From Verrucomicrobiota bacterium (GTDB lineage: Bacteria > Verrucomicrobiota > Verrucomicrobiia > Opitutales > Seribacteraceae): a DNA stretch of 64,000 bases. The translations under genes were made by a program, and so were the position numbers. This document shows positions 2 to 51,060 of the stretch, in pieces. The DNA is taken from positions 1-64,000 of the forward strand of contig JAQBYT010000019.1 in NCBI GenBank assembly GCA_027622665.1. The letters are read 5' to 3'. The notes below the pieces were generated by a model. That model was not told where the DNA came from and did no database searches. It saw only the letters and a program-made list of their open reading frames with translations. Numbering within the stretch: the stretch's first letter is position 1; each line of letters opens with the position of its first letter.

Positions 2-3000
2 GCGGACGTTTCGGGAACTGCCGCAACACCCTCGACCTTTACCTACGCCCCGAACGCGGACTTCAATGGAAGCGACAGCTTTGTTGTTCAGGTTACGGAC
101 GGTGCATCCCTTACGGATACGATCACAGTGAACGTAACTGTAAGCGGAGTAAGCGACGCTCCCGTAATCACCCAGGGAGCAGGGCCCTTGGTCGTGACAA
201 TGTCCGAGGACGGTTCACCTACGGCTTGGTCGGTTCCCACGCTTGGCGCGACAGATGCGGAAACCGCTGACAGTGCATTGGTTTGGAGCGTTTCATCTGC
301 GGCAACCAGCGGCACTGCAACCGTATCCGGAACTGCCGCCGCACCCACGACTTTCACCTATGCCCCGAACGCCGACTTCAATGGTAGTGATAGCTTCGTG
401 GTTCAGGTTACGGACGGTGCATCCCTTACTGACACGATCACGGTTAGCGTAACGGTAAGCGGAGTTAACGATGTTCCTGTTTTTATTAGTACTGCGATTG
501 ACTCGGCATTTGCTGATTCGGTTTACACTTACAATATCCGAGCAAATGATACTGATGGTAATGCCACTCTTATCATCTCTGCATCGGGTAATCCAGGTTG
601 GGCCAATTTTACTTATTCCGGTTCCGGCATTGCCACATTGACCGGAACTCCCTCTGATTCTGATGTTGGTTCCTCCAATATTTCACTACGAGCTACCGAT
701 TCGAATAGTGCTGCCGATCAGAACTTCACACTAGTGGTGGCACCATCGAACTATTTTCCCGTCATCAAAGTCGACAACATCTACCAAAACTCGACTACCG
801 TGACGATGTGGGAAGACAACGCCAGTTCGTTCTCTTTGACTGACTTAACTGCGAGCGACTCAGACGATTCCAATGCCACTCTGGTTTGGTCTGTAGACAC
901 GAACGCCTCCAATGGGACGGCAATCGTGGCAGGAGTTGGAACAACGCCGAGCACTGTCACTTTTACGCCTGACCCTGATTTCAACGGTACCGATTTCTTC
1001 GTCCTAAAGGTGACGGATACCCGAGGTGGTTTTGATACTCTCACCGTGGATCTCAACGTGACAGGCGTGGGAGACTCCCCTGTGATCACGCAGGGAGCGG
1101 GTCCTTTGAGCGTGACGATGTCCGAGGACGGATCTCCCACCGCGTGGGTGGCACCCACGTTAGGGGCGACAGATGTGGACACGGTCGACAGTACCTTGGT
1201 TTGGAGCGTCTCATCGGCGGCATCTAACGGAACTGCGACCGTGACTGGTACCGCCGCGGCGCCCTCGACCTTCACTTACGATCCGAACGCCGACTTCAAT
1301 GGGAGCGATAGTTTTGTGGTGCAGGTCTCCGACGGGGCCCTTACGGATACGATCACGGTGAACGTAACGGTTACCGCGGTGAATGACGCTCCTGTGATCA
1401 CGCAGGGAGCCGGTCCCTTGTCTGTGACTATGTCGGAAGACGGTTCTCCCACCGCGTGGGTGGCACCCACGTTAGGGGCGACAGATGTGGAAACCGCAGA
1501 CAGCGCCTTGATCTGGAGCGTATCTTCTGCAGCGACCAATGGCACGGCGACAGTTACGGGAACTGCAGCTGCTCCCACGACTTTTACATATGCTCCCAAC
1601 CTGGATTTCAACGGAAGCGACAGTTTCGTGGTGCAAGTTTCAGATGGCGACTTGAACGACACGATCACGGTGAACGTGACTGTCAGCGGAGTGAGCGACG
1701 CCCCCGTGATCACTCAGGGAGCGGGTCCTTTGAGCGTGACGATGTCCGAGGACGGTTCACCGACCGGTTGGTCCGCCCCCACGATTGGGGCGACAGACGC
1801 CGAAACAGCGGACAGTTCCTTGGAATGGAGCGTGTCATCCCCTGCATCTAACGGAACTGCGACCGTGACTGGTACCGCCGCGGCGCCCTCGACCTTCACT
1901 TACGCTCCGAACGCCGACTTCAATGGGAGCGATAGTTTTGAAGTGCAGGTGAGCGATGGCAACGAGACTGTCACGATAACGGTGAACGTTACTGTGACCG
2001 GTGTGGATGATCCACCGGTTTTCACAAGTACCGAAGTGACTTCCACTTGGGTGGGTGAGAGCTATGTCTACAATGTGCGTGCCAGTGATCCGGATGGAAA
2101 TGCAACGCTTACGCTTACCGCCCAGGACAAGCCTGCTTGGTTGGCCACCTTTACTGACCAAGATTCGGGGATGGCGTTGCTGTCCGGTACGCCGGAGGTA
2201 GAAGACATTGGGGAGCATAACGTATCTTTGCGGGCTACGGATACCAATGGCACTTATGCCGACCAGAACTTCACCCTTGTGGTCACGCCTGCCAATTATC
2301 CACCGGTAATCGAGGTCAATGGCACCGAAGTGAGCTCAATGCTCGTAAGCATGCAGGAAGATAATGCTAGCACCTTCTCGTTGACGGACTTAAATGCAAG
2401 CGACCAAGACGATTCCAACGCGACCCTCGTTTGGTCGGTACAAACGATTGCCTTCAATGGAACGGCAACTGTGGATGGAACGGGGCCCAATCCGACTTCC
2501 ATTACCTATGTTCCCGAAGGCAACTTCAGTGGTTCCGATGTCTTCGTCATCAAGGTGACGGACGCCAAGGGCGGAATAGATACGATAGAGGTCAACGTGA
2601 CGGTGAATGGGGTGAACGACTTACCCGTTCTTTCCGTGTCGGAAGACATCAACGTCACTATGGACGAGGGAGGTTATCCCATAGCATGGGTTTCCCCGGA
2701 GTTGAACGCGACCGACGTCGACGTCGGCGACGTCCTGACTTGGTCGGCGTTTTACGTGATACCTGCCGATGGCAACGGCACGCTTACCGTTTCGGGAACG
2801 GGTTCAAGCCCTTCGGTTTTTTCCTATTCCCCGAATTTGGACTTCAATGGAACCGACGTATTCTACGTTAGGGTTTCGGATGGCATCGAGAACATTGACA
2901 CAAAAGTAACGGTTACCGTCATTGGGAATGAAGAGGGGAGCACGGTTTATTCGCTGACGGCGCCGGTGACCTATACGATAGACAGGACCTCTCTTGATTT

Positions 3001-6000
3001 TCTGGTGACGGGAGGGGTGCACCTCGCGTCTCCTAGTCCGCGTTTAGCCCTATTTACGGACAACGTTTACGTTTTCGAGAACAATTCCACGAGCGGCGGT
3101 CCCCTTTACTTGGGAACCTCCCCGGGGACGCCTTACATCGGTGGAGAAGTTTGGGGTAATGGCGCTAGAGGGGAAGATGAATATCTCGTATTCCGACCTA
3201 CCTCGGTTTCGCCACCCCTCCTTTATTATTACGACGGAGATGATCCCAATAACATCTTCGCTCCAATCGAAGTGAGGCAATATCAAACGAGTGACGTCTT
3301 CGCAGAGGATCCTCTTCCCGACAATGCTTTTGGCGGAGCCGTTTCCGTATTGGGTGACCGTGCCATACTCGGAGCCACGGGGGTAAGTGACAATACGGGC
3401 GCGGTCTATCTCTATGATCGCGACTCCAATGGAACTTTGGTTCAATCCTCCAAGGTTACTCCGGTCGACCTCAATTCAAATAGCTTGTTTGGCGGTAGCG
3501 TAGCTCTTGGAGATGACTTTTTAGTTGCAGGAGCTCCGAACGACTTGGGCGCGGCAGGCAGTGCCTATGTTTATAATCTGGAAGCGAATGGTTCGTGGAT
3601 GCAGAGTCAGAAACTTCTTTTAACTACACCCGTCACTTTGCTTGATGCATTCGGTCAAGCGGTCGCCGTTTCAGGAGACGCCTTAGTCGTGACAGCTACG
3701 CAACCTGGCCAACTGGGCAACGAAGGCAATGGTTCCGCCTATGTTTTTCGTCTCACGAATGGAAACTGGATCTCTGATGGTAACCTAACCGCTTCCGATG
3801 GGAATTCGAGCGACCAGTTCGGGTATTCCGTGGACCTGGATGTAAACCTTACCGTTGTGGGGGCTAACAAAGCGGATGCAACCGGCTCCGATAGTGGCAC
3901 TGCTTATGTCTTTCATTATGAAGCAAACGGATCTTGGTCTCAGGAGCAGAAGTTGTCGCCATTGGTTCATACCACAGGAGATGAGTTCGGAACTTCCGTA
4001 TCTATTTTGGGTTCGGTCGCTCTCGTCGGTGCAATCAATGCCGACGGCAATGGAACCGATTCGGGAGCCGCCTATGTATTTCGGCGAGATTTCAGTGGGG
4101 GTTGGACTCAGGAAGCACTACTAGCTCCGCCTGTTGAGGGGATCGTAGGTTTTGGTTCTTCCGTCGCATTGTCCGGGAATTACGCCCTCGTCGATTCTCG
4201 TGACAAGAATGTGACGAGCGAACCCGCTTCCGCTTACCTGTATCGGAATGAAGTGAACTCGACCACTTGGACATTCGTCTCGACGCTGGGACGCGCCCAG
4301 GGGGTTGCGCTAGCAACTCAAGGTACGACCGTCGCTATGAGCGGGGATATGATCCTCGCCGGTAGCCCGGGCGACGATCGCAACGGTTCGGATGCGGGTT
4401 CGGCGACGTTTTTCACGAATCCGGGATGGGGTGATTTTACTTATCCGATGCTGGCGCCTATCATCACCCAAGGAACGAATCTCTCCGTTTCCATGAACGA
4501 GGATGGTGCATGGCCTGTTCCCGAATTGAATGCTTCCGACCCCTTTGGTGACACGCTTGTTTGGAGTGTGGATGCGAATGCTACCCACGGTCTTGCCACA
4601 GTTTCGGGCACGGGAGATTCACCATCGACCTTTAGTTACGTCCCGGAGGGGAATTATAGTGGAACCGACACTTTTGTGGTGCAGGTTTCGGACGGAGTTT
4701 TGAGCGATTTAATCACTGTGGACGTGAACGTGACAGCCCAGCCGGATTTCCCCGTGTTTGTGTCAATCGCGGTGGAGGATGTAGTCGAGAAAAGTCCTTA
4801 TTCCTACAATGTGGTTACCTTGGATCAAGATCCCGGGGCCACGCTTTCCATTACTGCAGTGGGGTCGCTGCCCGCTTGGATGACTGGAATCACTGACCAA
4901 GGTGATGGAACAGCCACACTGTCCGGTCTTCCGACCGTTGGTGATGGAAATGATACCTATCCAGTGACACTTAGGGTGACAGACGATACCAATCGCTCAA
5001 CCGATCAGAATCTAGACATTCGGGTGGCCTTTATCAACTATGCTCCGATCATCACTGTCGGCGGCAACGAGGGAAGCGAGATAACTGCAACAGTAGATGA
5101 GGACGATGGGAGTTCGTTTGTTCTATCATTAAACGTATCCGCCACAGACGGCACTCCTCCTTCAGTCAACTTGAGCTGGAGCGTAGATGCGAACGAAACC
5201 AATGGGACGGCGTTAGTCACCGGCAATGGTTCCATACCCACGGTTACTTATACTCCGTTTCCTGATTTCAACGGACCGGACAGTTTTTCCATGGTGGTTT
5301 CCGATGGAGAATTCAACGATACGATTACCGTGAACGTGACCGTGCAGGCGATTAACGATCCCCCGATCTTCACGAGTTCCCCTTCTGTTACCAACGTTAA
5401 CGAATCCACGACCTACACTTATTCCGTACAAGTGTCGGATGTCGACGGCGATGACATTACCATTGCCGCGACGGGCTTGCCTAGTTGGTTGGCCTTTAAT
5501 GATTTTGGTGATGGAACGGCAACCCTTTCCGGTACGCCCGAGTGGTATAATTACGCCTCATTCGCGGTATTCTTGATTGCAACCGATTCCAGTGGTAGTA
5601 TCGCCGTTCAGGATTTCGTCGTTTCCGTCATTCCCGACAACTATCCACCGGTCATTACGCAAGGGGCCGAACTGAGTGCAGTCATTATGGACGAGGACGG
5701 TTCTCCCGCCCCTTGGGTTGTGCCTACGATTACAGCGACTGATAGCGATACGAATGTCTCGAAGCTGGTTTGGACTATAAAGCAACAAGCCATTCACGGG
5801 ACTGCCGTCGTAGGGGGTACGGGTGGGTCGCCTTCTACCTTTACCTATGCTCCCGATGGCAATTTTAGTGGACAGGACAGTTTCGTCGTCAGTGTGCATG
5901 ACGTCGACGACTCAAACGCTTCCGACGAAATTATCGTGCCTGTGACCGTTAATCCGCGGGACGACCCACCTGTCTTTACGAGTACCGCTCCGGCTTTCGG

Positions 6001-9000
6001 GCTCAAAGATAGCCTCTATACTTATACCGTTCAGGCAAGTGATCCCGATGGATTGTCAGGTCTGCAAGTTACGGGTTCTTTTCCTAGTTGGCTTTTCTTG
6101 GCGGACTACGGAGAGGGCAACGCCACTTTGTCGGGCACTCATTTTAGCGCGGATGATAATGTAACTGTTACCCTCCAAGTGACAGATCCCACAGGTTTGA
6201 TCGATACCCAGACTTTTAGCATCAACGTGATTGGGGAGAATTCACCGCCCGTGGTGACTCAAGGTTCCGCTGTGGATGTCTTGATGGACGAGGATGGCAG
6301 TCCCACTGCATGGCAACCACCAGTCCTCACTGCGACTGATGCCGATGGACATCCCCTTCACTGGAGTCTCTCTGAAGCCCCGAGCCACGGGAGCGCTACG
6401 GTTTCCGGTACCGGATCAAGTCCGCCGACCTTCAACTACGTTCCTGATGGTAATTACTCCGGCACGGATAGTTTCGTCGTTCAGGTAACGGATTCAATCG
6501 CGACCGTGAAAGTAACGGTTCAAGTAACGATCGAACCGCAACCCGATGCCCCCGTCTTCGTCTCTACGCCTGACTTATCGGTAGTGGATGGCGAAATCTA
6601 TACTTACGAACTCAACGCGACCGATGCCGATGGTGATGTCAACTTTACCTTTATTCCCTCAAGTTTGCCTGCCTGGTTGAGCTTGGTCGAAGAGAACGGG
6701 AAGAGCATCTTGACTGGTGTTCCATCCGTCGGTGACGAAGGATTCAATTCGGTACAGGTTGCGGTCAAGGATGACTCTAATCTTAGCACGGTACAGGCTT
6801 TCGAGGTCGAGGTGGATGTGTTGAATTATCCGCCCTCGATTACCGTGAATGGCCAAGATCAGAACTCTATTACGGTTACCATTGATGAGGACGCAAACGA
6901 GTCGATTTGGAGTTTGCTGGCACCCGAATTGAATGCCACGGATCAAGAAACCAATGCCCTTGCTTGGAGTATTAGTTCCTTTTCCATCCATGGGACCGTA
7001 ACCATCACCGGAACTGGAAATGCTCCCGGTAGTCTGGTTTACATACCCGAAGCAAACTTCTTTGGGAGTGATCAATTTATCGTTCGTGTCACTGACCTTG
7101 GAGCCAACGAAAAACCCGCAAAGTTTGATGAGATCACAATAAACGTTACCGTTCAGCCTCTGGCGGACGATCCTTCCTTCTTCAGCACGGCAATCACGGA
7201 AATTACTGACGAAGAGGATTACGTTTACAACATTTCCACCACGGATCCCGACGGGAATGACACGCTTACTTTATCCTACAACGGAACACTACCCGGTTGG
7301 TTGACCGATTTTCGCGATGAGGGCAATGGCACGGCGGTCTTGCGTGGTCGAGCGGCAGTGGGGGATGAGGAGGCATCCTCCGGCAATCCATACTCGATAT
7401 CGCTCGCGGTGACCGATGATAGTAATGTGTCCGTTGATCAAAACTTTACTATCAACGTCACGATTCAGAACTATCCGCCAGTTATTGCAAACGCTCCCTT
7501 TTCCGTAACGATGAGCGAGGACGGCAACTCGACTGCTTGGGAATTCCCTCTAGTGACAGCAATGGACCCCGATCCTGAGGTTTTGGGGGCGATTGAGCTT
7601 ACTTGGTCACTCGTGGCTCAATCTGCCCACGGTATTGCCGAAGTCAGTGGGACGGGAACGACTCTTGGCGATGGAAACGATACTTTCACTTACGTACCTG
7701 ACGAAAACTATTTCGGCACGGACAGTTTTATCGTTCGTGTTTCGGATGGACATCGATTTGCAGATACGAATGTTTCCGTTACGGTATCTCCTCGACCCGA
7801 TCCACCTGCTTTTGTCTCCGTACCAGTTGCTTATGCTCGTGCCGGCCAAGAATATCGGTACGATGTCTCTGTTGTGGATCCTGACGGCGGCAATCTTTCT
7901 TTGCGAGTCTTTGGTAAGCCGGACTGGATGCATCTTGTGGAGACGAACTCTTCCGACGGTCATGCTTCCATCTTCGGAACACCATTGGAAAATATAGTCG
8001 GCAGGTTCTACCCCATTAGTCTTGTTGCCATTGATCCCACGGGTCGTCTTGCTTTTCAATCCTTCACGCTTGAAGTTGGTCCAGGGAACGTTCCCCCTGT
8101 TATTGCCCAAGGCGAGCAACTTTCCGGCAGCATTTATGAGGACAATGCCAGTTCGTGGTCTCCCCCCGATTTGAATGCGAGCAATTCCGATGGCGATACG
8201 CTGGTGTGGAACCTTGTACAAGGACCCAGTCACGGAACCGCCACTGTCGAAGGTAATGGATCGAAACCCACCACCTTCGATTACATTGCCGATGCAAACT
8301 ATTCGGGTCCCGACAGTTTCGTGATCCGAGTCTGGGATGGATACGCTGAATTTAATGCGACGGTTACCGTTACCGTATATCCCGTTAATGACCCACCCGA
8401 ATTGTATGGAACTCCTGTTCTTTCGGCTGTGGAAGGTAAGCTTTATTCGTTCGATCTCAATGCAACTGATATCGATGGAGACGCATTGACTTTCACCTTC
8501 ACGGGGTCGCCTTCTTGGCTAGCTTTCCAATACTTGGGCGGTGGACTCGTTCGAGTTTCGGGAATTCCGCCCATCGGAAGTCGTGGCGAGAGTAACATGA
8601 CCTTTACTGCCACGGACGAAGGGAATGCCACTGCCGAAATATCTTTCGATCTTGCGGTGTCGGATGGTTTGCCCCCCGTGATCACTCTCTTGGGTGACTC
8701 TCTTCTCCAGTTGCCGGTAGGGGAGGATTTCATTGAACCCGGTTACGTCGGTTCTGACGATTCGGATGGGGATATTACAGATTCGGTGGTGATCTCAAGT
8801 ACCGTCAATCCCGATATTCCGGGAACATATGCGATTACTTATTCTTTGTCGGACATGGCGGGCAACGATGCCGCTCCACTCACTAGGGTTGTATATGTTT
8901 CCGATCCTTCGGTATATCCGGTAGCACTCTGGGCGAAGAGCGTATCCGTCAATGCTGAAATACACAACATTGCACTGGGTTCTGACGACTCGGTGTTTTC

Positions 9001-12000
9001 CGTCGGTTCTTTCTCCGATTCGCTTCAATTGGGGCAAGCGACAATTCATTCGCAAGGGCTCTCCGATATTTTCCTTAGCCGTCGATCATCCGATGGTTCA
9101 CCCCTTTGGATCATTGGTTTCGGAGGGATTGATTCCGACAATGGAACCGACGTCGTGATCGGTCTCGATGATACTGCCTATGTTACGGGGTCGTTTCGAG
9201 GAGTGATCTCTTTTGGTGAACATTCTTTGATATCCGAGGGAGGCAGTGATGCTTTCCTTTTAAAGGTGGATTTTCAAGGTTCGGTTATCTGGGCGAAGAG
9301 TCTTGGAGGCCCCGGCGATGATAACGGTCTTTCACTTTCGGTATCTTCAGACGGTTCTGTCCTTTGGACTGGTTTTCATTCTTCCAACTCGACGGCCGAT
9401 TCCACGGCATTGAAGGATTTTGGCGGTTTGGATACCTTTCTGGCCAAGGTGGGTGTTGACGGCTCTTATACTTGGGTTCGATCCGTGGGTGGACCAGGGG
9501 ATGATTCCGGCGAAGGCGTGGTGGTTGATCCTGCCGGAGGTTCTTACGTGGTAGGCAATGTCTCCAACCAGTCCCCCAGTGACGTTTTTCTCCTTCGCTA
9601 TAATGCAGACGGTTATCTGGTATGGGCCAGAAAAGTGGGGGGAGCATCCTCCGATACGGCAACGTCTATAGTGGCTGATTCTTCCGGTGTGTACATTGCG
9701 GGTAGCTTCGAAGGAATGGCGACTTTCGAAGATGCCTCCATCACTTCCGCAGGTCTTTCGGATGCCTATCTTGCCAAATATTCGCCTAGCGGCTCTTTGG
9801 TCTGGGTTGAACGTTTTGGTGGGACTGGAGCAGACGACAGCGACCAAATTGACCTAGATCCTTTCGGCAATCCCTGTTTACTAGGTTCATTCGAGGGTTC
9901 AATGTCTTTTGGCGATCAAGTTCTTGTTTCGGAAGGTAGTCGTGACCTTTTCCTTGCCAAGACTGCCGCCACTTCCGGAAAACTGATATGGTCTCGCAGT
10001 ATAGGGGGGGGAACTCTCGATTCGGCTCACGGATTATCCAGTGGCAGCGACGGTTCCCTCTACTTGGCTTCCCACTATCTTGGGAGTTCTCTGACGATAG
10101 ATACCCATGTGCTGTCGACAACCGGATCCCACGGTTTTTCAGTTCTAAAATTGGGTGCTCCTCATGGATTGCCAAATTCGTCTTTACCGGAAATCGGTAC
10201 CCTAGTTACGGGGCAATCATTTGGCTTCGACATGAATGCTACAAGTAATTCCGGGATTCTACCTCGTTTTCAGTTTATTTCCGGTCCGAGTTGGATGAAT
10301 TTGCAAGACCGTGGAAATGGTTCAGCACTTCTTGCAGGGATTCCTCCTGCAGGATCGTCGGGAAGTTATAACGCGAAAATACGCACTACGGATATGCAGG
10401 GTGGTACGGTCGACAAATCTCTTGAGTTTGATGTGTTTAAGAGTTTGTCGGAACCGAATGGTTTTGGAGATGAACCTGAAACCTTATGGATGCAACCGGG
10501 ACAAGGCGGAGAGTTCGCCAATGGCGTGGCGGCATCCGGGGATGGCGGTTTCTTCGTTGTTGGAGCATTCACTGGTTCCACTCAAATAGGAGGAGCAATT
10601 CTTACCGCGGAGGGACGGACGGATTCCTTCGTTGCCAAGTTTGATTCTGCCGGGAAACTGGAATGGGCCGATCGCTTTGGAGGTCTTGATCAAGACTACG
10701 CTTACGCCGTGGACGTTGACCTAAATGGTGTTGCCTACGTTGCGGGATATTTTATGGGAACCGCTACTTTTGGATCTCATGTCCTTACCAGTAGCGGTGG
10801 ATACGACATATATTTGTTGCGAATCGAACCCGACGGTCAAGTCACTTGGGCCTTGAGCTTTGGTGGAAGTTCCGAGGATTACGGCAAGGCTGTTCACGCT
10901 GCCCCGAACGGCTCGGTTTATCTCGCCGGCCATTTTTCCGATTTTGCGACATTCGGAAATTCTTTTTTGAATTCGAATGGCGGCGAGGATGGTTTCGTGG
11001 CCAAGATCAATGGATCGAACGGGACTCTCGAATGGGTCAAAAACATGGGAGGACAAAATAGTGACAGAGCTCTTGATTTATCCGAAGACGGAAAAAACGG
11101 TGTTGCCGTCGCCGGACGCTTTGAAAGCGTGGCCACTTTTGGCGGGCACTCGGTTACCAGTTTAGGTTTCGGTGATGCCTTTCTCGCCCATTATGATGCT
11201 TCGGGTTCATGCCTTTTCGCCGTTCGAGCAGGAGGGGTTGGTGAAGATGAAGGTCGAGCCGTTGTTCGCTCTTCGACAGGATCGTATCTCTTTGGCGGCA
11301 ATTTCCGAAACTCTTCTACCTTTGGAGGTCATGCAATAGTTTCTCGTGGCGGTAGTGATGCCTTTCTTGCATGGATTACTCCTGATGGGTCCTTTACTTC
11401 GGTAACCTCTCTGGGCGGTGTCTGGTCGGATGAAGTTACTGACCTAGCCCTTGACGTTTCCGGTAAACCAATAGTCGCCGGTTCCTTTCGTGGGTCCGTG
11501 GTCTTTGGGTCGAATACCTTTTCTTCTCGTGGAGATAGCGATGTATTCATTGCCAAACTGAGTGATACCAATAGTTCTGTTATGTGGGTCAAAACAGGAG
11601 GTGGCGTGGGTGCGGATGCTGCTCGAGCCGTTGCCGTCGATAGCTTGTTCGATAGGATTTGTCTGGCCGGATACGTCTCGCCGGACGCCACTTTTGACAA
11701 CCGTGCTGCAAGTCCTGATACTACCAGACGTTCCCTCCTTATTGCGGACCTTGGGTATCCATCTGTTGACGACACTAGATTTCGTTCCTATCCCCTTAGG
11801 TTCGCCACCGGGGGCGCTTTGTATCGCTATGATTTTGAAAGTGGTCCTTGGGGGACTGGCGTACCTGCTGTCTCTGCCATTCAATTGCCACCATGGTTAT
11901 CTCTACAAGACCACGGGGAAGGCAATGGCAGTATTTCGGGTGTCGTTCCTTCCGACGCTAATGGTACTTACTCCATTACACTCGTTGCATCCGATGAATC

Positions 12001-12661
12001 CGCCCGAACGGTCTCACAAACCTTTTCACTTGTAGTGGGCACAAGTAATGGAAGTCCCGTTATAATCGCCTCGCCTTCCACTAGAGCGGTACCTCTTGAA
12101 GAATATAGTTTTGACCTAAATGTTTTTGATCCCGAGGGCGACGTTGTTCTTATTTACGCCACCAATCTTCCCGGCTGGCTTAAATTAGAGCGTCACGGCA
12201 ATGGCACCGCAACTGTAAGCGGCGTCCCCACGAATGCAACAGGTGTCGTTGAACCAATTGAAATTATCGTTACTGACGGTAAGCACGAAACTCGTCTTTC
12301 CTTTTCCATTGAAATAGCCTCATCCTGGTGGGGGATATCTGAAAGTCTGGGTGCAGGTCAGTGGCGTAGAAACTGGTTCGGCACTTTCAGCCTTTCGGTG
12401 TCGTCTTGGGTTTATCACGAACATTTGGGCTGGGTTTTTGCCCAGGGCACCCAACCTGATTCGGTCTGGTTCTGGATTGAAGGACGGGGATGGTTCTGGA
12501 CGAGCGCCCAGCATTGGAACTCCGATACAGGTGATGGTCACGTCTATAGATCCGACGAAGCAGCGTGGTTATATCTTCGCTCTTACGATTCTCCTAGGAA
12601 CGCTAAACTCTATGGATACTCTACCGAAGAGTGGATGCCTCTTCTACTTGAGGAGAACTAA
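2..12661 (+). CDS. Giant repetitive surface protein/adhesin, 5'-truncated (>4200 aa): tandem cadherin-like/Big_9 and putative-Ig repeats, FG-GAP propeller, DUF5011-like Ig domain, two SBBP-like propellers, Trp-rich C-terminal domain
   Basis: Frame is open from nt 2 (ADVSGTAATPSTFTYAPNADFNGSDSF...), so GTG 128 is internal. Repeated 'PVIT...EDG...TFTYxPxxxFNGxDSFxVxVSDG' and 'PVF.S...Y.Y...D.DG...LPxWL...LSGTP' units; FG-GAP-like 'FGxSVxxxGxxxxVGA...GxAYV' at ~3300-4430; 'PVITLLG...EPGY..D..DGDIT' at ~8670; 'GxxDxFxxKxxxxGxxxW' repeats at ~8925-11755. Confidence 0.9.
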   Translation, partial: ADVSGTAATPSTFTYAPNADFNGSDSFVVQVTDGASLTDTITVNVTVSGVSDAPVITQGAGPLVVTMSEDGSPTAWSVPTLGATDAETADSALVWSVSSAATSGTATVSGTAAAPTTFTYAPNADFNGSDSFVVQVTDGASLTDTITVSVTVSGVNDVPVFISTAIDSAFADSVYTYNIRANDTDGNATLIISASGNPGWANFTYSGSGIATLTGTPSDSDVGSSNISLRATDSNSAADQNFTLVVAPSNYFPVIKVDNIYQNSTTVTMWEDNASSFSLTDLTASDSDDSNATLVWSVDTNASNGTAIVAGVGTTPSTVTFTPDPDFNGTDFFVLKVTDTRGGFDTLTVDLNVTGVGDSPVITQGAGPLSVTMSEDGSPTAWVAPTLGATDVDTVDSTLVWSVSSAASNGTATVTGTAAAPSTFTYDPNADFNGSDSFVVQVSDGALTDTITVNVTVTAVNDAPVITQGAGPLSVTMSEDGSPTAWVAPTLGATDVETADSALIWSVSSAATNGTATVTGTAAAPTTFTYAPNLDFNGSDSFVVQVSDGDLNDTITVNVTVSGVSDAPVITQGAGPLSVTMSEDGSPTGWSAPTIGATDAETADSSLEWSVSSPASNGTATVTGTAAAPSTFTYAPNADFNGSDSFEVQVSDGNETVTITVNVTVTGVDDPPVFTSTEVTSTWVGESYVYNVRASDPDGNATLTLTAQDKPAWLATFTDQDSGMALLSGTPEVEDIGEHNVSLRATDTNGTYADQNFTLVVTPANYPPVIEVNGTEVSSMLVSMQEDNASTFSLTDLNASDQDDSNATLVWSVQTIAFNGTATVDGTGPNPTSITYVPEGNFSGSDVFVIKVTDAKGGIDTIEVNVTVNGVNDLPVLSVSEDINVTMDEGGYPIAWVSPELNATDVDVGDVLTWSAFYVIPADGNGTLTVSGTGSSPSVFSYSPNLDFNGTDVFYVRVSDGIENIDTKVTVTVIGNEEGSTVYSLTAPVTYTIDRTSLDFLVTGGVHLASPSPRLALFTDNVYVFENNSTSGGPLYLGTSPGTPYIGGEVWGNGARGEDEYLVFRPTSVSPPLLYYYDGDDPNNIFAPIEVRQYQTSDVFAEDPLPDNAFGGAVSVLGDRAILGATGVSDNTGAVYLYDRDSNGTLVQSSKVTPVDLNSNSLFGGSVALGDDFLVAGAPNDLGAAGSAYVYNLEANGSWMQSQKLLLTTPVTLLDAFGQAVAVSGDALVVTATQPGQLGNEGNGSAYVFRLTNGNWISDGNLTASDGNSSDQFGYSVDLDVNLTVVGANKADATGSDSGTAYVFHYEANGSWSQEQKLSPLVHTTGDEFGTSVSILGSVALVGAINADGNGTDSGAAYVFRRDFSGGWTQEALLAPPVEGIVGFGSSVALSGNYALVDSRDKNVTSEPASAYLYRNEVNSTTWTFVSTLGRAQGVALATQGTTVAMSGDMILAGSPGDDRNGSDAGSATFFTNPGWGDFTYPMLAPIITQGTNLSVSMNEDGAWPVPELNASDPFGDTLVWSVDANATHGLATVSGTGDSPSTFSYVPEGNYSGTDTFVVQVSDGVLSDLITVDVNVTAQPDFPVFVSIAVEDVVEKSPYSYNVVTLDQDPGATLSITAVGSLPAWMTGITDQGDGTATLSGLPTVGDGNDTYPVTLRVTDDTNRSTDQNLDIRVAFINYAPIITVGGNEGSEITATVDEDDGSSFVLSLNVSATDGTPPSVNLSWSVDANETNGTALVTGNGSIPTVTYTPFPDFNGPDSFSMVVSDGEFNDTITVNVTVQAINDPPIFTSSPSVTNVNESTTYTYSVQVSDVDGDDITIAATGLPSWLAFNDFGDGTATLSGTPEWYNYASFAVFLIATDSSGSIAVQDFVVSVIPDNYPPVITQGAELSAVIMDEDGSPAPWVVPTITATDSDTNVSKLVWTIKQQAIHGTAVVGGTGGSPSTFTYAPDGNFSGQDSFVVSVHDVDDSNASDEIIVPVTVNPRDDPPVFTSTAPAFGLKDSLYTYTVQASDPDGLSGLQVTGSFPSWLFLADYGEGNATLSGTHFSADDNVTVTLQVTDPTGLIDTQTFSINVIGENSPPVVTQGSAVDVLMDEDGSPTAWQPPVLTATDADGHPLHWSLSEAPSHGSATVSGTGSSPPTFNYVPDGNYSGTDSFVVQVTDSIATVKVTVQVTIEPQPDAPVFVSTPDLSVVDGEIYTYELNATDADGDVNFTFIPSSLPAWLSLVEENGKSILTGVPSVGDEGFNSVQVAVKDDSNLSTVQAFEVEVDVLNYPPSITVNGQDQNSITVTIDEDANESIWSLLAPELNATDQETNALAWSISSFSIHGTVTITGTGNAPGSLVYIPEANFFGSDQFIVRVTDLGANEKPAKFDEITINVTVQPLADDPSFFSTAITEITDEEDYVYNISTTDPDGNDTLTLSYNGTLPGWLTDFRDEGNGTAVLRGRAAVGDEEASSGNPYSISLAVTDDSNVSVDQNFTINVTIQNYPPVIANAPFSVTMSEDGNSTAWEFPLVTAMDPDPEVLGAIELTWSLVAQSAHGIAEVSGTGTTLGDGNDTFTYVPDENYFGTDSFIVRVSDGHRFADTNVSVTVSPRPDPPAFVSVPVAYARAGQEYRYDVSVVDPDGGNLSLRVFGKPDWMHLVETNSSDGHASIFGTPLENIVGRFYPISLVAIDPTGRLAFQSFTLEVGPGNVPPVIAQGEQLSGSIYEDNASSWSPPDLNASNSDGDTLVWNLVQGPSHGTATVEGNGSKPTTFDYIADANYSGPDSFVIRVWDGYAEFNATVTVTVYPVNDPPELYGTPVLSAVEGKLYSFDLNATDIDGDALTFTFTGSPSWLAFQYLGGGLVRVSGIPPIGSRGESNMTFTATDEGNATAEISFDLAVSDGLPPVITLLGDSLLQLPVGEDFIEPGYVGSDDSDGDITDSVVISSTVNPDIPGTYAITYSLSDMAGNDAAPLTRVVYVSDPSVYPVALWAKSVSVNAEIHNIALGSDDSVFSVGSFSDSLQLGQATIHSQGLSDIFLSRRSSDGSPLWIIGFGGIDSDNGTDVVIGLDDTAYVTGSFRGVISFGEHSLISEGGSDAFLLKVDFQGSVIWAKSLGGPGDDNGLSLSVSSDGSVLWTGFHSSNSTADSTALKDFGGLDTFLAKVGVDGSYTWVRSVGGPGDDSGEGVVVDPAGGSYVVGNVSNQSPSDVFLLRYNADGYLVWARKVGGASSDTATSIVADSSGVYIAGSFEGMATFEDASITSAGLSDAYLAKYSPSGSLVWVERFGGTGADDSDQIDLDPFGNPCLLGSFEGSMSFGDQVLVSEGSRDLFLAKTAATSGKLIWSRSIGGGTLDSAHGLSSGSDGSLYLASHYLGSSLTIDTHVLSTTGSHGFSVLKLGAPHGLPNSSLPEIGTLVTGQSFGFDMNATSNSGILPRFQFISGPSWMNLQDRGNGSALLAGIPPAGSSGSYNAKIRTTDMQGGTVDKSLEFDVFKSLSEPNGFGDEPETLWMQPGQGGEFANGVAASGDGGFFVVGAFTGSTQIGGAILTAEGRTDSFVAKFDSAGKLEWADRFGGLDQDYAYAVDVDLNGVAYVAGYFMGTATFGSHVLTSSGGYDIYLLRIEPDGQVTWALSFGGSSEDYGKAVHAAPNGSVYLAGHFSDFATFGNSFLNSNGGEDGFVAKINGSNGTLEWVKNMGGQNSDRALDLSEDGKNGVAVAGRFESVATFGGHSVTSLGFGDAFLAHYDASGSCLFAVRAGGVGEDEGRAVVRSSTGSYLFGGNFRNSSTFGGHAIVSRGGSDAFLAWITPDGSFTSVTSLGGVWSDEVTDLALDVSGKPIVAGSFRGSVVFGSNTFSSRGDSDVFIAKLSDTNSSVMWVKTGGGVGADAARAVAVDSLFDRICLAGYVSPDATFDNRAASPDTTRRSLLIADLGYPSVDDTRFRSYPLRFATGGALYRYDFESGPWGTGVPAVSAIQLPPWLSLQDHGEGNGSISGVVPSDANGTYSITLVASDESARTVSQTFSLVVGTSNGSPVIIASPSTRAVPLEEYSFDLNVFDPEGDVVLIYATNLPGWLKLERHGNGTATVSGVPTNATGVVEPIEIIVTDGKHETRLSFSIEIASSWWGISESLGAGQWRRNWFGTFSLSVSSWVYHEHLGWVFAQGTQPDSVWFWIEGRGWFWTSAQHWNSDTGDGHVYRSDEAAWLYLRSYDSPRNAKLYGYSTEEWMPLLLEEN
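1082..2010 (+). repeat. Three tandem 312-bp (104-aa) coding repeats; further related copies at ~1-470
   Basis: 'gtgatcac(g/t)cagggagc(g/c)ggtcc' recurs at 1082, 1394 and 1706, with a related copy at 164. Confidence 0.9.
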
Positions 12662-47808: not shown

Positions 47809-50800
47809 GTGGCGCTTTTAGGATCAATCGTTAAAACCACCCAGGCTCTTCAGTACCATGCGAAGAGCACTGAGATTGCGGGCAAAAACCTTAGTCATGT
47901 TAATGACGAAAGTTATGCTAGACAACGAGTCGTTGCTCGTGATGGGTCAATGTATAAAGAGGTCGGTTCCCTTGGTACTAGCGCTCTTCAAATGGGCGGG
48001 CTTGATCATGCTCGAAGTGAACTTTTGGATAGGCGAGTGGTGTCGGAAGTTGGCGAAACCTCCTCCTTGGATGCTCGTAAGGAAATTTTAGATTTGCTCC
48101 AATCAGCTCTTGGCGAACGAGTCACTCGCCAAGGAGTGAACGTTGGTTTGGATGACCAATCGGAGAGTGATCTTGCCCCGGGAAGTTTAACTCGTGCCCT
48201 AAATGATTTTTTTAACGCGTTTCAGGAGCTCTCAGCTTCTCCAGATGAACCGACCATTAAACAGGAACTCTATCATAAGGTTCAGACATTGGGTAAGCGT
48301 TTCAATGAATCCGGCGAAAAGTTTGAGTCGATCGAAGCCGACTTGACTGCGACTGTAAAGCAATCAGTAGTGCAGATTAATACTATTTTGGAGAAGTTGC
48401 ATGAGGTAAACCAACAGGTACGCCGATTCGAACTTCAAGACAAAGGGAAAGCGGCCACTTACCGCGATCGTCGCCAGCAATTGCTGGAGGATTTGTCCAA
48501 GCTCATGGATTTTAAAGTGGAGGACGATGTTGATCCGACTTCGGGTCAAGCATCCGGTCTTCTGAATCTGTTCTCCACTACAACCAAGGGAGAGAAGGTG
48601 AAGCTTCTTGATCCTAATGGTTCTAAGATTTTGAGTACCAACTGGGGGCAGGAATTTGCCGTTTCCGCACCTGCTGATTCGAGTGGTACTGTGGCTCAAG
48701 TTCGCGCTAAGATCGGTGTGGATGGTAAGCTGGGTCGGGTTGAAATCCTCGATGGTGGTTCCAAGTATTCCGATGCCGATGGTCCAATTCTAGTGGCTTT
48801 GGCTCCTCCTGCTAGAACTGAGCCAGCGGAACCTGATCAAGCGCAGAACAATGCCGGGGCGGGATTGGCCGAAGCCGGAACCGTTGTCGAGGCTGCCCTT
48901 CAGGCGGGGCAACCTGTTGATCAAGGACCTGATCTAGGAGCCCAGACGGGGACTGCTGCTGTTCCTGGGGGAATTGGGGGTGGTGGCGTTGCTGGGGTAC
49001 AGGAAACCGCAACTGCTCCTACGGGTCCTGTTGCCGCTCCTTTTTCTTTGGAGCAGGGAGAAGTTTTCAATTACCAAGGAAGTTACTATCAATCACTCGT
49101 CTCGACGGCTAAGGGTGACAATCTTTCAGACGAGACCAAATTTCTCAGGATTGACACCATCCCGAATGGACAAGTCCGTGAATACTCATGGAATTTATCA
49201 GACTTGGAAAGCTTTTCTAAAGGCGAACAGTTTTATCAGAACGGGAAACTATACCAAACCACTGGCGAAATATCTCCTGTAGTTGGCGAGGTCGGTGTAT
49301 CGAATGAATCAGGTGTTCTTGTGAGTTCCCAAGGTTATGCAAAGGGCGATGTTTTCCAATATGGAGGTACTTACTATCAAGCTCTAGAGTCATTTGAAGC
49401 AGGACAAAGTTTGCCGGAGGCAGAAACCATGGGGAATCAGAGCAATGGATTTGTTTCTCTCGGAACACAACTTCCCTATGCCTCAATGGATCCCTCTCAA
49501 CTCTTAACTATTAATTCTTTTACAGACCAAGCGATTGTTAAGGGCCGGTATCTTGAAAGTAATAACAAGTATTTTGTTGCTTTGGAGGATTTTTCTACCG
49601 GAGGTTCTCAACAGAATGTGTTCAGCCCAACTTCTGACGCTCGTGTTGAAGAGGTGATGACTTTTGTTAAAACCGTAAAGACGACCGAAGATGTAATCAC
49701 ATCTCAGCGGTTGAAGCAGGGGGATGTCATTTACGACAGTCCATCGAATTCCCATTTTCTCGTGAAGACCAGTTTGCTTATCGAAACACCTGCTCAAGCG
49801 CAAACTTTCGATCCTACCTCCACTCAATGGTCCAAGTATGTGCAGAAGATTGCTCCGCAAGTAGCCGGTGGAAACAATTTAGAAATTCTTAGTCGTAAGA
49901 ATAAAACTGCTTTCGATCCTAAGTCAGACAAGGCTGTGGAATTGAATTTGGGATTGGCCGAGGCTATCGTTCAGAAGGGCGAAATCGTTGGTTTCAATAT
50001 CATTAACCAAGGCGGTGGATACCCTCCTAGTGACGCCCTTTTTGCGGATGGCGTAGAGCTTGCTCTTAAATCAGGATCCGTCCATGGTTACCAGCATATT
50101 AGAATGGATGAGATGGAGACCTTCCGTCAGCAACTGAACCGTTTGTCGACTGATTTCGTTACCCAAATAAATCAAATTTATAATCCCGATGACGAGCCAG
50201 GTGGATATATCTTTGGATTCGATGCTTTTCTAGGTCGACCTTCTCAAGGGACCAACAAGGTGATGGAGGAAGAGTATGGACTAATGGGAACTGAAGGAGA
50301 AGGTGAATTCATCCTCTACCGTGACGAGGTCGAGATGACCGTTCCATACCCGGAGAAAGACACATTCATGGTGACTTATGCTGCACCGGTGTTTCCTGAA
50401 GAACTGGAAGGAACAGTACCTTTTATTCGTGGCGATGCCGCCACCGAACTTCTAGTGCTCGAGAATCCTGACTTCGTTAAGATTTACGCATCTGCTCAGC
50501 GAATGAAGCATGTTACGATGGAAACCGATCTTGGGTATATTGGTCGAGATGGTACTCCCGGTACTGAAGATGACGGTAGAATGATGATGCTCGGATACGA
50601 AAAAATTCCCTTTCGTTTGGAGGCAGGGGATAAGTCTTTTGTATTTGGAGATAATTTCTCTTTTGATGCGGTTCCTGCGAATGCTTGGAATGTAGCGAAA
50701 AGCATGCGAGTGGATGAAGACTTTTCTTTTGATACGATTAAAGTTTCGGTTGATACCAGTAGTGGCGCCAACGACATAGCTTTGGCTATAGCTGAGAAGG

Positions 50801-51060
50801 GTAATGGAGAGTTCACTGAAAGAGTATCTACCTTAAACACTTCCATAGGAAATTCTTTGGCTGACGTGAGTGACAACCTTGAGCATCAGAAAGCTGTGGA
50901 AAGGCTTCTTCTGGACGAGCGCCAAGCCGTCAGTTCCGTTTCAATGGATGAGGAGGTCGCTGACTTGATGCGTTTTCAGCGATCTTTTCAAGCGTCTTCT
51001 CGCGTGCTCAAGACTTTGGATAGCATGCTCGAACTGATAGTTATGGGACTTCTCCGTTAG
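47809..51060 (+). CDS. flgK: Hook-associated protein FlgK, enlarged (1083 aa) by inserted modules
   Basis: N-terminal KNLSHVN..SYARQRV, LNDFFNAFQELSASP, RDRRQQLLEDLS; C-terminal SSVSMDEEVADLMRFQRSFQASSRV. Confidence 0.93.
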   Translation: MALLGSIVKTTQALQYHAKSTEIAGKNLSHVNDESYARQRVVARDGSMYKEVGSLGTSALQMGGLDHARSELLDRRVVSEVGETSSLDARKEILDLLQSALGERVTRQGVNVGLDDQSESDLAPGSLTRALNDFFNAFQELSASPDEPTIKQELYHKVQTLGKRFNESGEKFESIEADLTATVKQSVVQINTILEKLHEVNQQVRRFELQDKGKAATYRDRRQQLLEDLSKLMDFKVEDDVDPTSGQASGLLNLFSTTTKGEKVKLLDPNGSKILSTNWGQEFAVSAPADSSGTVAQVRAKIGVDGKLGRVEILDGGSKYSDADGPILVALAPPARTEPAEPDQAQNNAGAGLAEAGTVVEAALQAGQPVDQGPDLGAQTGTAAVPGGIGGGGVAGVQETATAPTGPVAAPFSLEQGEVFNYQGSYYQSLVSTAKGDNLSDETKFLRIDTIPNGQVREYSWNLSDLESFSKGEQFYQNGKLYQTTGEISPVVGEVGVSNESGVLVSSQGYAKGDVFQYGGTYYQALESFEAGQSLPEAETMGNQSNGFVSLGTQLPYASMDPSQLLTINSFTDQAIVKGRYLESNNKYFVALEDFSTGGSQQNVFSPTSDARVEEVMTFVKTVKTTEDVITSQRLKQGDVIYDSPSNSHFLVKTSLLIETPAQAQTFDPTSTQWSKYVQKIAPQVAGGNNLEILSRKNKTAFDPKSDKAVELNLGLAEAIVQKGEIVGFNIINQGGGYPPSDALFADGVELALKSGSVHGYQHIRMDEMETFRQQLNRLSTDFVTQINQIYNPDDEPGGYIFGFDAFLGRPSQGTNKVMEEEYGLMGTEGEGEFILYRDEVEMTVPYPEKDTFMVTYAAPVFPEELEGTVPFIRGDAATELLVLENPDFVKIYASAQRMKHVTMETDLGYIGRDGTPGTEDDGRMMMLGYEKIPFRLEAGDKSFVFGDNFSFDAVPANAWNVAKSMRVDEDFSFDTIKVSVDTSSGANDIALAIAEKGNGEFTERVSTLNTSIGNSLADVSDNLEHQKAVERLLLDERQAVSSVSMDEEVADLMRFQRSFQASSRVLKTLDSMLELIVMGLLR

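Follow-up and report, generated by a model that had tools for sequence, protein, structure and literature searches.

The window analysed here, 64,000 nucleotides (nt) long, is the first 64 kb of contig C3 in the 4.5-Mb genome of a Verrucomicrobiota bacterium (66 contigs, 93.5% complete). It begins inside the gene of a giant surface protein that is rich in N-X-S/T sequons, most of them with Asp or Glu at position -2, which is the acceptor pattern of Campylobacter-type (PglB) oligosaccharyltransferases. A PglB homologue is encoded on another contig. The distribution of the acidic sequon over this proteome and over related genomes, together with the enzyme, makes it highly likely that the organism, a member of a marine Opitutales family, runs a Campylobacter-type N-glycosylation system. 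The remainder of the window carries dxs, an M48 protease and a large flagellar gene cluster that includes FlgK and a FlgL/flagellin-like protein. The giant protein is laid out as follows.

2..12661, plus strand: open reading frame (ORF) of the giant surface protein, 4219 amino acids (aa); no stop codon before the contig start, open at its 5' end
8..2920, plus strand: eight Big_9-like immunoglobulin (Ig)/cadherin-like modules (aa 3-973) with He_PIG-type modules between them, found with our own hidden Markov model (HMM) from Big_9 hits and with Pfam
3284..4405, plus strand: FG-GAP_2 beta-propeller, 6 repeats
4451..8377, plus strand: seven more Big_9-like modules (aa 1484-2792) with Ig-like modules between them, found with our own HMM
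8681..8899, plus strand: Bact_surface_Ig-like domain (aa 2894-2966), Pfam
9002..11251, plus strand: sequon-poor stretch with SBBP-type propeller repeats (aa 3001-3750)
12284..12658, plus strand: C-terminal Trp-rich domain of about 110-125 aa, common to 34 ORFs of the genome

The initial annotation placed this protein at 2..12000; the start is right, but the ORF ends only at 12661. The N-terminus is missing because the contig begins within the gene. Apart from internal repeats, nothing in the rest of the assembly matches the contig's first 600 nt, and the closest orthologue (genome G305, 83% identical) likewise runs off its contig. The Pfam matches over their cut-offs are Big_9 (524.9 bits, 16 stretches), Cadherin_5 (268.3 bits, 13), Cadherin_4 (262 bits, 11), FG-GAP_2 (195.6 bits, 6) and He_PIG (119.9 bits, 9), and one Bact_surface_Ig-like domain and SBBP repeats are also present. 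Judged by these domains, the protein is a bacterial surface protein of Ig-like, cadherin-like and propeller repeats.

The giant ORF contains 118 N-X-S/T sequons (X not Pro), and 80 of these have Asp (53) or Glu (27) at -2, while the two residues together make up 12.1% of the protein. In 2000 composition-preserving shuffles, sequons averaged 43.8 (standard deviation 5.8, maximum 69) against the 118 observed, and acidic sequons, D/E-X-N-X-S/T, averaged 5.0 (standard deviation 2.2, maximum 13) against the 80 observed. None of the 80 has Pro at -1. Non-sequon Asn residues have Asp or Glu at -2 in only 15 of 98 cases, so the acidic residue is tied to the sequon and not to Asn as such. Dozens of different pentamers are found, spread over the 15 Ig-like modules, the propeller and the linkers, and acidic sequons occur in all domain types of the protein except the SBBP-rich stretch. 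The eight Big_9-like modules of 8..2920 hold 31 sequons, 21 of them acidic, and the seven of 4451..8377 hold 25, with 20 acidic. The FG-GAP propeller (nt 3239-4450) is acidic at all 11 of its sequons; the SBBP-rich stretch is acidic at 1 of 10. Two flagellar proteins of the window, exported via the flagellar apparatus, serve as negative controls.

47809..51060, plus strand: FlgK, 1083 aa
51082..54279, plus strand: FlgL/flagellin-like protein, 1065 aa

FlgK has Asp or Glu at -2 in 0 of 10 sequons and the FlgL-like protein in 1 of 13, with 1.0 expected. Both flagellar proteins are unusually long, and their flagellar-family matches lie at the termini only, which implies large central insertions. 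The initial annotation had counted by hand some 75-80 acidic sequons among about 115. It had described an excess beyond the Asp and Glu content that was not one amplified repeat, that took in nearly every sequon of the FG-GAP propeller, that dropped sharply in the SBBP propellers and that was absent from FlgK and FlgL. The exact counts agree with this description at each point, including the comparison with shuffled sequence.

The motif was then counted over 3375 ORFs from a longest-ORF caller, with localisation assigned by a simple signal-peptide and transmembrane (TM) heuristic and the expectation taken from composition. Secreted proteins have 748 acidic sequons against 284 expected (observed/expected ratio, O/E, 2.63) and membrane proteins 340 against 122 (2.79), while cytoplasmic proteins have 315 against 278 (1.13). 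In proteins of up to 600 aa the ratios are 1.76, 2.27 and 0.99, respectively. The excess persists in these small proteins, and the signal therefore does not come from giant repeat proteins alone. Eight of nine control patterns stay at O/E 0.75-1.21 in every class and at every size cut; these are the mirror motif, Asp or Glu at -3, Gln or Asp in place of Asn, Asn or Gln at -2, no Ser or Thr at +2, plain N-X-S/T and N-X-C. The ninth, Asp or Glu at -1, reaches 1.28-1.45 in membrane and 1.17-1.19 in cytoplasmic proteins. The 2.0-2.8-fold enrichment in predicted exported proteins, absent from cytoplasmic ones, is what had been predicted from the giant protein.

A scan of exported proteins of up to 1000 aa defines the preference at each position. 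At -2, Asp is enriched 2.76-fold and Glu 1.50-fold, with all other residues at 0.82-1.23. At +2, Thr (2.69) exceeds Ser (1.67). Pro at -1 brings the ratio to 0.80 and Pro at +1 to 1.00. In total, 593 acidic sequons are observed in this set against 281 expected (Poisson p 5e-59); the cytoplasmic counterpart gives 249 against 254, and all its acidic-sequon ratios fall within 0.96-1.27. This profile, with Asp over Glu, Thr over Ser, no Pro and a DQNAT-like optimum, matches what we take to be the specificity of C. jejuni PglB. DQNAT is described as the canonical sequon in one account of the enzyme (PMC4894442).

A search of the genome for an STT3/PglB homologue, which the initial annotation had proposed, gave a single STT3 match.

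G000:C43:2660-5920, minus strand: STT3/PglB homologue, 1086 aa, the only STT3 match in the genome

No stop codon interrupts the gene's open frame of 1089 aa. Pfam STT3 (PF02516) scores 74.5 bits in the genome search and 71.9 bits on the protein (cut-off 24.5), and the STT3/PglB/AglB core domain (PF21436) scores 74.7 bits (cut-off 23). The signature WWDYG lies at about residue 630; its W631 is the same in all 25 family members compared, and W630, D632 and Y633 show almost no variation. Residues D123, D225, D227 and E451 are invariant in the same 25 sequences. In the alignment with the C. lari PglB chain, the Asp of the first external loop (EL1), YYDTD, GLRFT, WWDYG and I572 are conserved, and E451 and R463, both invariant in the family, are aligned with E319 and R331 of the C. 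lari enzyme. We take D56 (the EL1 Asp), D154/D156 (the D-x-D) and E319 (the Glu of the TIXE loop) to have catalytic roles in the C. lari enzyme; D123, D225, D227 and E451 are their aligned equivalents. R331 of C. lari is described as the arginine that reads the acidic -2 residue (PMC4894442, PMC10859629).

The best solved sequence relatives are the C. lari PglB structures 6gxc, 5ogl and 3rce, with E-values of 5e-43 from the single sequence and 1.5e-100 from the 25-member family profile. The AlphaFold model has a mean predicted local distance difference test score (pLDDT) of 80.4 and a predicted template modelling score (pTM) of 0.77. Foldseek ranks 5ogl, 6gxc and 3rce best, with E-values of 2e-27 to 1e-25 and a target-normalised TM-score (TMt) of 0.69-0.70, and places AglB and STT3 chains at 6e-10 or weaker, with TMt 0.42-0.55 (archaeal AglB 0.42-0.45). 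In its predicted fold the enzyme resembles PglB more than it does AglB or eukaryotic STT3. A C-terminal extension of about 200 aa is beta-rich and confidently modelled. A LysM domain was considered there because PF01476 was matched in one relative, but no LysM was found in residues 891-1086 with Pfam at E<=1.

The homologue is widespread within the family and was found nowhere else in the phylum where we searched. Among species representatives, it was found in 31 of 36 further family members (5 genera), in 0 of the 24 genomes from the order's other families and in 0 of 300 genomes sampled elsewhere across the phylum. The figure of 31 of 36 is a lower bound, because in at least three of the five family genomes with no match the contig that carries the upstream gene is short and breaks off at the expected position of pglB. 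A large protein collection holds 254 relatives at E<=1e-10, mostly of 1030-1180 aa, and the named ones among them are Opitutae or Opitutales metagenome-assembled genomes. Below, PglB+ and PglB- stand for genomes with a pglB homologue and for genomes of the same order in which none was found. We sampled 120-160 kb from the start of a long contig in three PglB+ genomes from two other genera and in three PglB- genomes. In the PglB+ samples, acidic sequons number 118 against 33.0 expected in exported proteins and 29 against 32.1 in cytoplasmic ones; in one of these genomes (G329) a few large proteins supply much of the excess. The PglB- samples give 15 against 18.8 and 31 against 32.9, respectively.

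The pentamers could also be structural motifs of the domains that hold them, such as Ca2+-binding loops, Asx turns, FG-GAP NG hairpins or a cadherin-like 'DFNGSD' strand, with no glycan attached. Some of them do take stereotyped positions, for example in the hairpins of the propeller blades ('E-x-N-G-S/T-W') and in the 'PNADFNGSDSF' that recurs in the Ig-like modules. Two domain families allow a matched comparison between genomes with and without the enzyme. FG-GAP_2 regions carry 19 acidic sequons in 1065 aa in this genome (1.1 expected) and 36 in 1913 aa in five PglB+ genomes of other genera (2.3 expected), against 0 in 2986 aa in five PglB- genomes (2.1 expected), the 5 among 24 searched in which the domain occurs. 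To locate Big_9 modules we used a single HMM, built from 28 seed hits drawn from both sets. The sequons of these modules are acidic in 64 of 102 cases in the 33 modules of this genome (63%; 4.9 expected), in 91 of 162 cases in 56 modules of other PglB+ genera (56%; 8.9 expected) and in 10 of 162 cases in 113 PglB- modules (6%; 13.2 expected). Over whole ORFs with Big_9 modules, the O/E of acidic sequons is 10.5, 8.4 and 0.78 in the same order.

The PglB- Big_9 modules are themselves rich in plain N-X-S/T ('LANDSD', 'ANGSF'), with 162 observed against 107 expected, which is a point for the structural explanation. The acidic -2 residue, rather than the plain sequon, sets the PglB+ lineage apart. 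One PglB- protein with FG-GAP_2 (G341:C30:3027-4499, 491 aa) has 16 plain sequons (8.6 expected), 0 of them with Asp or Glu at -2; sequon-rich surface domains can thus exist with no acidic signature. The enrichment holds against both domain-matched nulls, the comparison on which the glycosylation proposal had been expected to stand or fall. A structural origin is also at odds with the enrichment in exported proteins of up to 600 aa and its absence from cytoplasmic ones, with the restriction of the -2 signal to Asp and Glu, and with the loss of the effect when Pro stands at -1 or +1. It is already largely refuted, and we regard it as very unlikely.

Another enzyme could be the one that acts on these sites, either a cytoplasmic N-glycosyltransferase (NGT) of HMW1C type or a non-glycan modification enzyme or protease that reads the motif, with the PglB homologue incidental. 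There is a precedent in Haemophilus, where giant adhesins are heavily N-glycosylated by a cytoplasmic NGT. However, NGT uses plain N-X-S/T in the cytoplasm, and the signal here needs Asp or Glu at -2 and is seen in exported proteins only. The enrichment moreover tracks the presence of pglB in the six sampled relatives and in both domain nulls, and the genome (93.5% complete) has 0 GT41/NGT-type family matches at E<=0.001. We consider such an enzyme highly improbable, and PglB-type transfer remains the explanation that we favour.

A regular array of acidic sequons lies next to pglB, in a gene designated P0124.

G000:C43:3-2435, minus strand: P0124, directly downstream of pglB on the same strand, 811 aa, runs off the contig end

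P0124 has a signal-like N-terminus and seven FG-GAP blades, six with an E-x-N-G-S/T hairpin, and 43 of its 45 sequons have Asp or Glu at -2. A tandem array of at least 32 units, each of 8 residues, forms its end, and DPGDGNFT is the sequence of 31 of 32. At the DNA level these 32 units comprise 27 different sequences, and pairwise codon differences between the units are 1686 synonymous against 31 non-synonymous. On these codon counts the array is under purifying selection, and the peptide, a string of ideal acidic sequons, is what is preserved. A 5'-open ORF on another contig (C57:21101-22582, minus strand) opens with twelve units, eleven with DGNFT and one with DGNIT, and has the Trp-rich domain at its end; it is probably the other end of the P0124 gene and array. 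A second kind of array is seen in a 1638-aa secreted protein (G000:C42:25801-30714, plus strand) with 69 sequons, 56 of them with Asp or Glu at -2. Its C-terminal 250 residues or so consist of 7-residue x-x-D-x-N-x-T arrays (VPDGNGT, FVDDNAT, LPDSNAT).

Sequons of the giant protein can be followed between species. Over aa 1001-1700, four orthologues with overall identities of 83, 80, 84 and 55% keep the full motif at 14 of 17, 13 of 16, 12 of 14 and 9 of 16 alignable sites, respectively. For the orthologue with 55% identity, about 3 of 16 sites would be expected if the three residues were retained independently, against the 9 of 16 found in this small sample. The Trp-rich domain of about 110 aa is present in 34 ORFs of the genome, mostly at the extreme C-terminus of large exported proteins, and these ORFs together carry 446 acidic sequons against 52 expected. 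It has no Pfam or NCBIfam match and is possibly a surface-anchoring or sorting domain. Complete paralogues with this C-terminal domain have N-terminal hydrophobic, signal-like segments.

On its other side, pglB follows two conserved genes in this genome and in 8 of 8 other PglB+ genomes, and a large glycan-biosynthesis cluster lies on another contig.

G000:C43:5979-9984, minus strand: P0122 and P0123, which precede pglB
G000:C13:16000-55000, minus strand: large glycan-biosynthesis cluster, candidate source of the N-glycan donor

The three-gene unit is interrupted by stop codons in one genome (G324). P0122 is a 764-aa membrane protein in which a single TM segment at the N-terminus is followed by a large periplasmic part and, at the C-terminus, 4-5 TM helices, and P0123 is a 573-aa coiled-coil protein with a globular C-terminus and an Atlas hint of a trypsin-like fold, at a score of only 0.88. 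Pfam and NCBIfam gave nothing specific for either, and Atlas gave Verrucomicrobiota hypothetical clusters only. A role as PglB-specific accessory subunits was considered and rejected, since homologues of P0122, matching only its C-terminal 300 aa or so, are also present in 12 of 24 pglB-less families of the order. The neighbours of pglB in this genome are two proteins with no assigned function, a TonB-dependent receptor and a lactonase.

The cluster on C13 includes two Bac_transf enzymes (442 and 227 aa), the smaller one a PglC-like phosphoglycosyltransferase, and a WecA-like GT4-family enzyme. It further contains a Polysacc_synt_2 dehydratase (4,6-dehydratase-type), a GNAT acetyltransferase, several epimerases, GT4 enzymes, four methyltransferases and a LegC-family aminotransferase (530 bits, cut-off 420). 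The best NCBIfam model for its ABC transporter is PglK, at 309.7 bits against a cut-off of 1000.

The acidic sequons could be a legacy of an ancestor with an active PglB system, and in the present organism the enzyme or the donor could be defunct, or the enzyme could release free oligosaccharide only. No pgl cluster stands beside pglB, and the donor pathway has no confident identification, as this explanation would allow. The evidence for expression is weak as well. Four seawater or marine metatranscriptome runs from four studies contain contigs of 110-664 nt that match parts of pglB at 95-99+% identity, with 7-15 of 30 bins covered, though these contigs may be DNA carry-over or come from related strains and are not proof of transcription. 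Against decay stand the uninterrupted pglB frame and the aligned catalytic residues that are invariant in 25 family members. The strong purifying selection on the DPGDGNFT array (1686 synonymous against 31 non-synonymous differences) and the retention of sequons between species of the genus point the same way. We judge a defunct system to be unlikely, if somewhat less so than the structural and other-enzyme alternatives.

We therefore return to an active PglB-type system, as the initial annotation had suggested for the periplasm of this organism; the enzyme, the enrichment in exported proteins and the domain nulls all support that suggestion. The single-subunit inner-membrane oligosaccharyltransferase of G000:C43:2660-5920 would transfer a preassembled, undecaprenyl-pyrophosphate-linked glycan to the Asn of D/E-X-N-X-S/T. 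Proteins in transit through the periplasm would receive the glycan on the periplasmic side of the membrane, and the candidate cluster on C13 may supply the glycan donor. The giant protein would cross the inner membrane by Sec, as the signal-like N-termini of its complete paralogues suggest. It would be among the most heavily targeted substrates, with about 80 candidate sites, approximately one per 53 residues, in exposed loops and linkers. It would then reach the surface, perhaps via its Trp-rich C-terminal domain, as one of at least 34 such surface proteins. A dense glycan coat could protect or solubilise the target proteins.

Several observations weigh against this proposal. It is built on sequence statistics and homology. 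The ORF calling and localisation behind the proteome counts are crude, with obvious misclassifications (e.g. FliG called secreted), and the related genomes are non-independent samples. Acidic sequons are all but absent from the SBBP region. The enzyme belongs to a distant clade, with 22-23% identity to C. lari PglB in the structural alignment. Its sole NCBIfam match, the NCBI PglB equivalog model NF050801, scores 196.6 bits against a cut-off of 1300; this is far below the cut-off, and we thus file it as a distant PglB-like clade rather than an orthologue of the enzyme from Campylobacter. Its length exceeds that of C. lari PglB by about 370 aa, a long insertion precedes the TIXE loop, and the C-terminal extension has no family match. 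The gene lies outside any pgl-type cluster in this genome and in the 8 other PglB+ genomes examined. The C13 cluster is suggestive as a donor pathway, a candidate that could equally serve lipopolysaccharide or capsule. The Sec route of the giant protein is drawn from paralogues only, its own N-terminus being unassembled, and in other bacteria repeat adhesins are often exported by the type I route, which avoids the periplasm.

A wider evolutionary scenario goes beyond the presence of the system, and we favour it by a small margin only. The family would have acquired a PglB-type enzyme once, and its exported proteome would then have been remodelled. Dozens of giant proteins with the Trp-rich domain would have gained dense acidic sequons, some as mucin-like tandem tracts of (DPGDGNFT)n and x-x-D-x-N-x-T arrays. 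These proteins would make up an N-glycoprotein glycocalyx, more densely N-glycosylated than is predicted for any other bacterium, served by an enlarged PglB with an extra periplasmic domain.

If the proposal is true, a widespread marine lineage has PglB-type N-glycosylation. It would offer an unusually clear natural experiment, in which a proteome adapts after the gain of an oligosaccharyltransferase and sequons are gained only in exported proteins, with the exact specificity of the enzyme. The enrichment of acidic sequons in exported versus cytoplasmic proteins could be used to screen genomes for active N-glycosylation. For glycoengineering, the lineage may provide a divergent, enlarged PglB and natural poly-sequon tags. 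In the sea, heavily glycosylated giant adhesins could affect particle attachment, protease resistance and interactions with phages and grazers. The initial annotation held such a system to be uncharacterised in Verrucomicrobiota, and we likewise found no literature that ties PglB, STT3, GT66 or oligosaccharyltransferase to Verrucomicrobia or Opitutales, in a search that did not cover subscription journals.

Among known systems, the closest is the Pgl pathway of Campylobacter jejuni and C. lari (PDB entries 3RCE, 5OGL and 6GXC), whose single-subunit STT3-family enzyme is the best match in both sequence and fold. The catalytic Asp/Glu set, WWDYG and the R331 equivalent of PglB are all present here. 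The inferred acceptor, D/E-X-N-X-S/T with Asp over Glu, Thr over Ser and no Pro at -1 or +1, agrees with the preferences that we take PglB to have. A PglK-like ABC transporter and a small PglC-like phosphoglycosyltransferase are encoded elsewhere in the genome. The differences are the phylum, the identity of 22-23%, the length of 1086 aa against 713-724 aa, the lack of a pgl cluster, and a proteome that is strongly enriched in the sequon and carries tandem poly-sequon tracts.

A 2015 account assigns most PglB homologues to epsilonproteobacteria and a few to deltaproteobacteria and aquificae, and describes Desulfovibrio homologues that are 15-20% identical to the C. jejuni enzyme (PMC4894442). 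Some of these Desulfovibrio enzymes are reported there to have a relaxed or non-acidic -2 preference and to lack the R331 equivalent (PMC4894442). The enzyme described here resembles them as a PglB-type enzyme outside Campylobacterota that is distant from the C. jejuni one. It differs from some of them in its invariant Arg and in a proteome signal that is specific for Asp or Glu at -2.

Archaeal AglB and the S-layer offer a functional analogy, with a single-subunit STT3-family enzyme and what may be a comparable dense N-glycan coat on large surface proteins. AglB uses plain N-X-S/T and dolichol-linked donors, and the model of the present enzyme has a TMt of 0.42-0.45 to AglB versus 0.69-0.70 to PglB. 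Haemophilus HMW1 with HMW1C (GT41 NGT) is also a giant bacterial adhesin with many Asn-linked sugars, which are predicted in our case. HMW1C is a soluble cytoplasmic enzyme that adds single hexoses and has no -2 requirement; the present genome, unlike that system, has no GT41 match and a signal confined to exported proteins. Compared with the known PglB systems, the chemistry and the sequon would be the same, and what is new is the phylum, the enlarged enzyme, its gene context and an adapted proteome with poly-sequon tracts.

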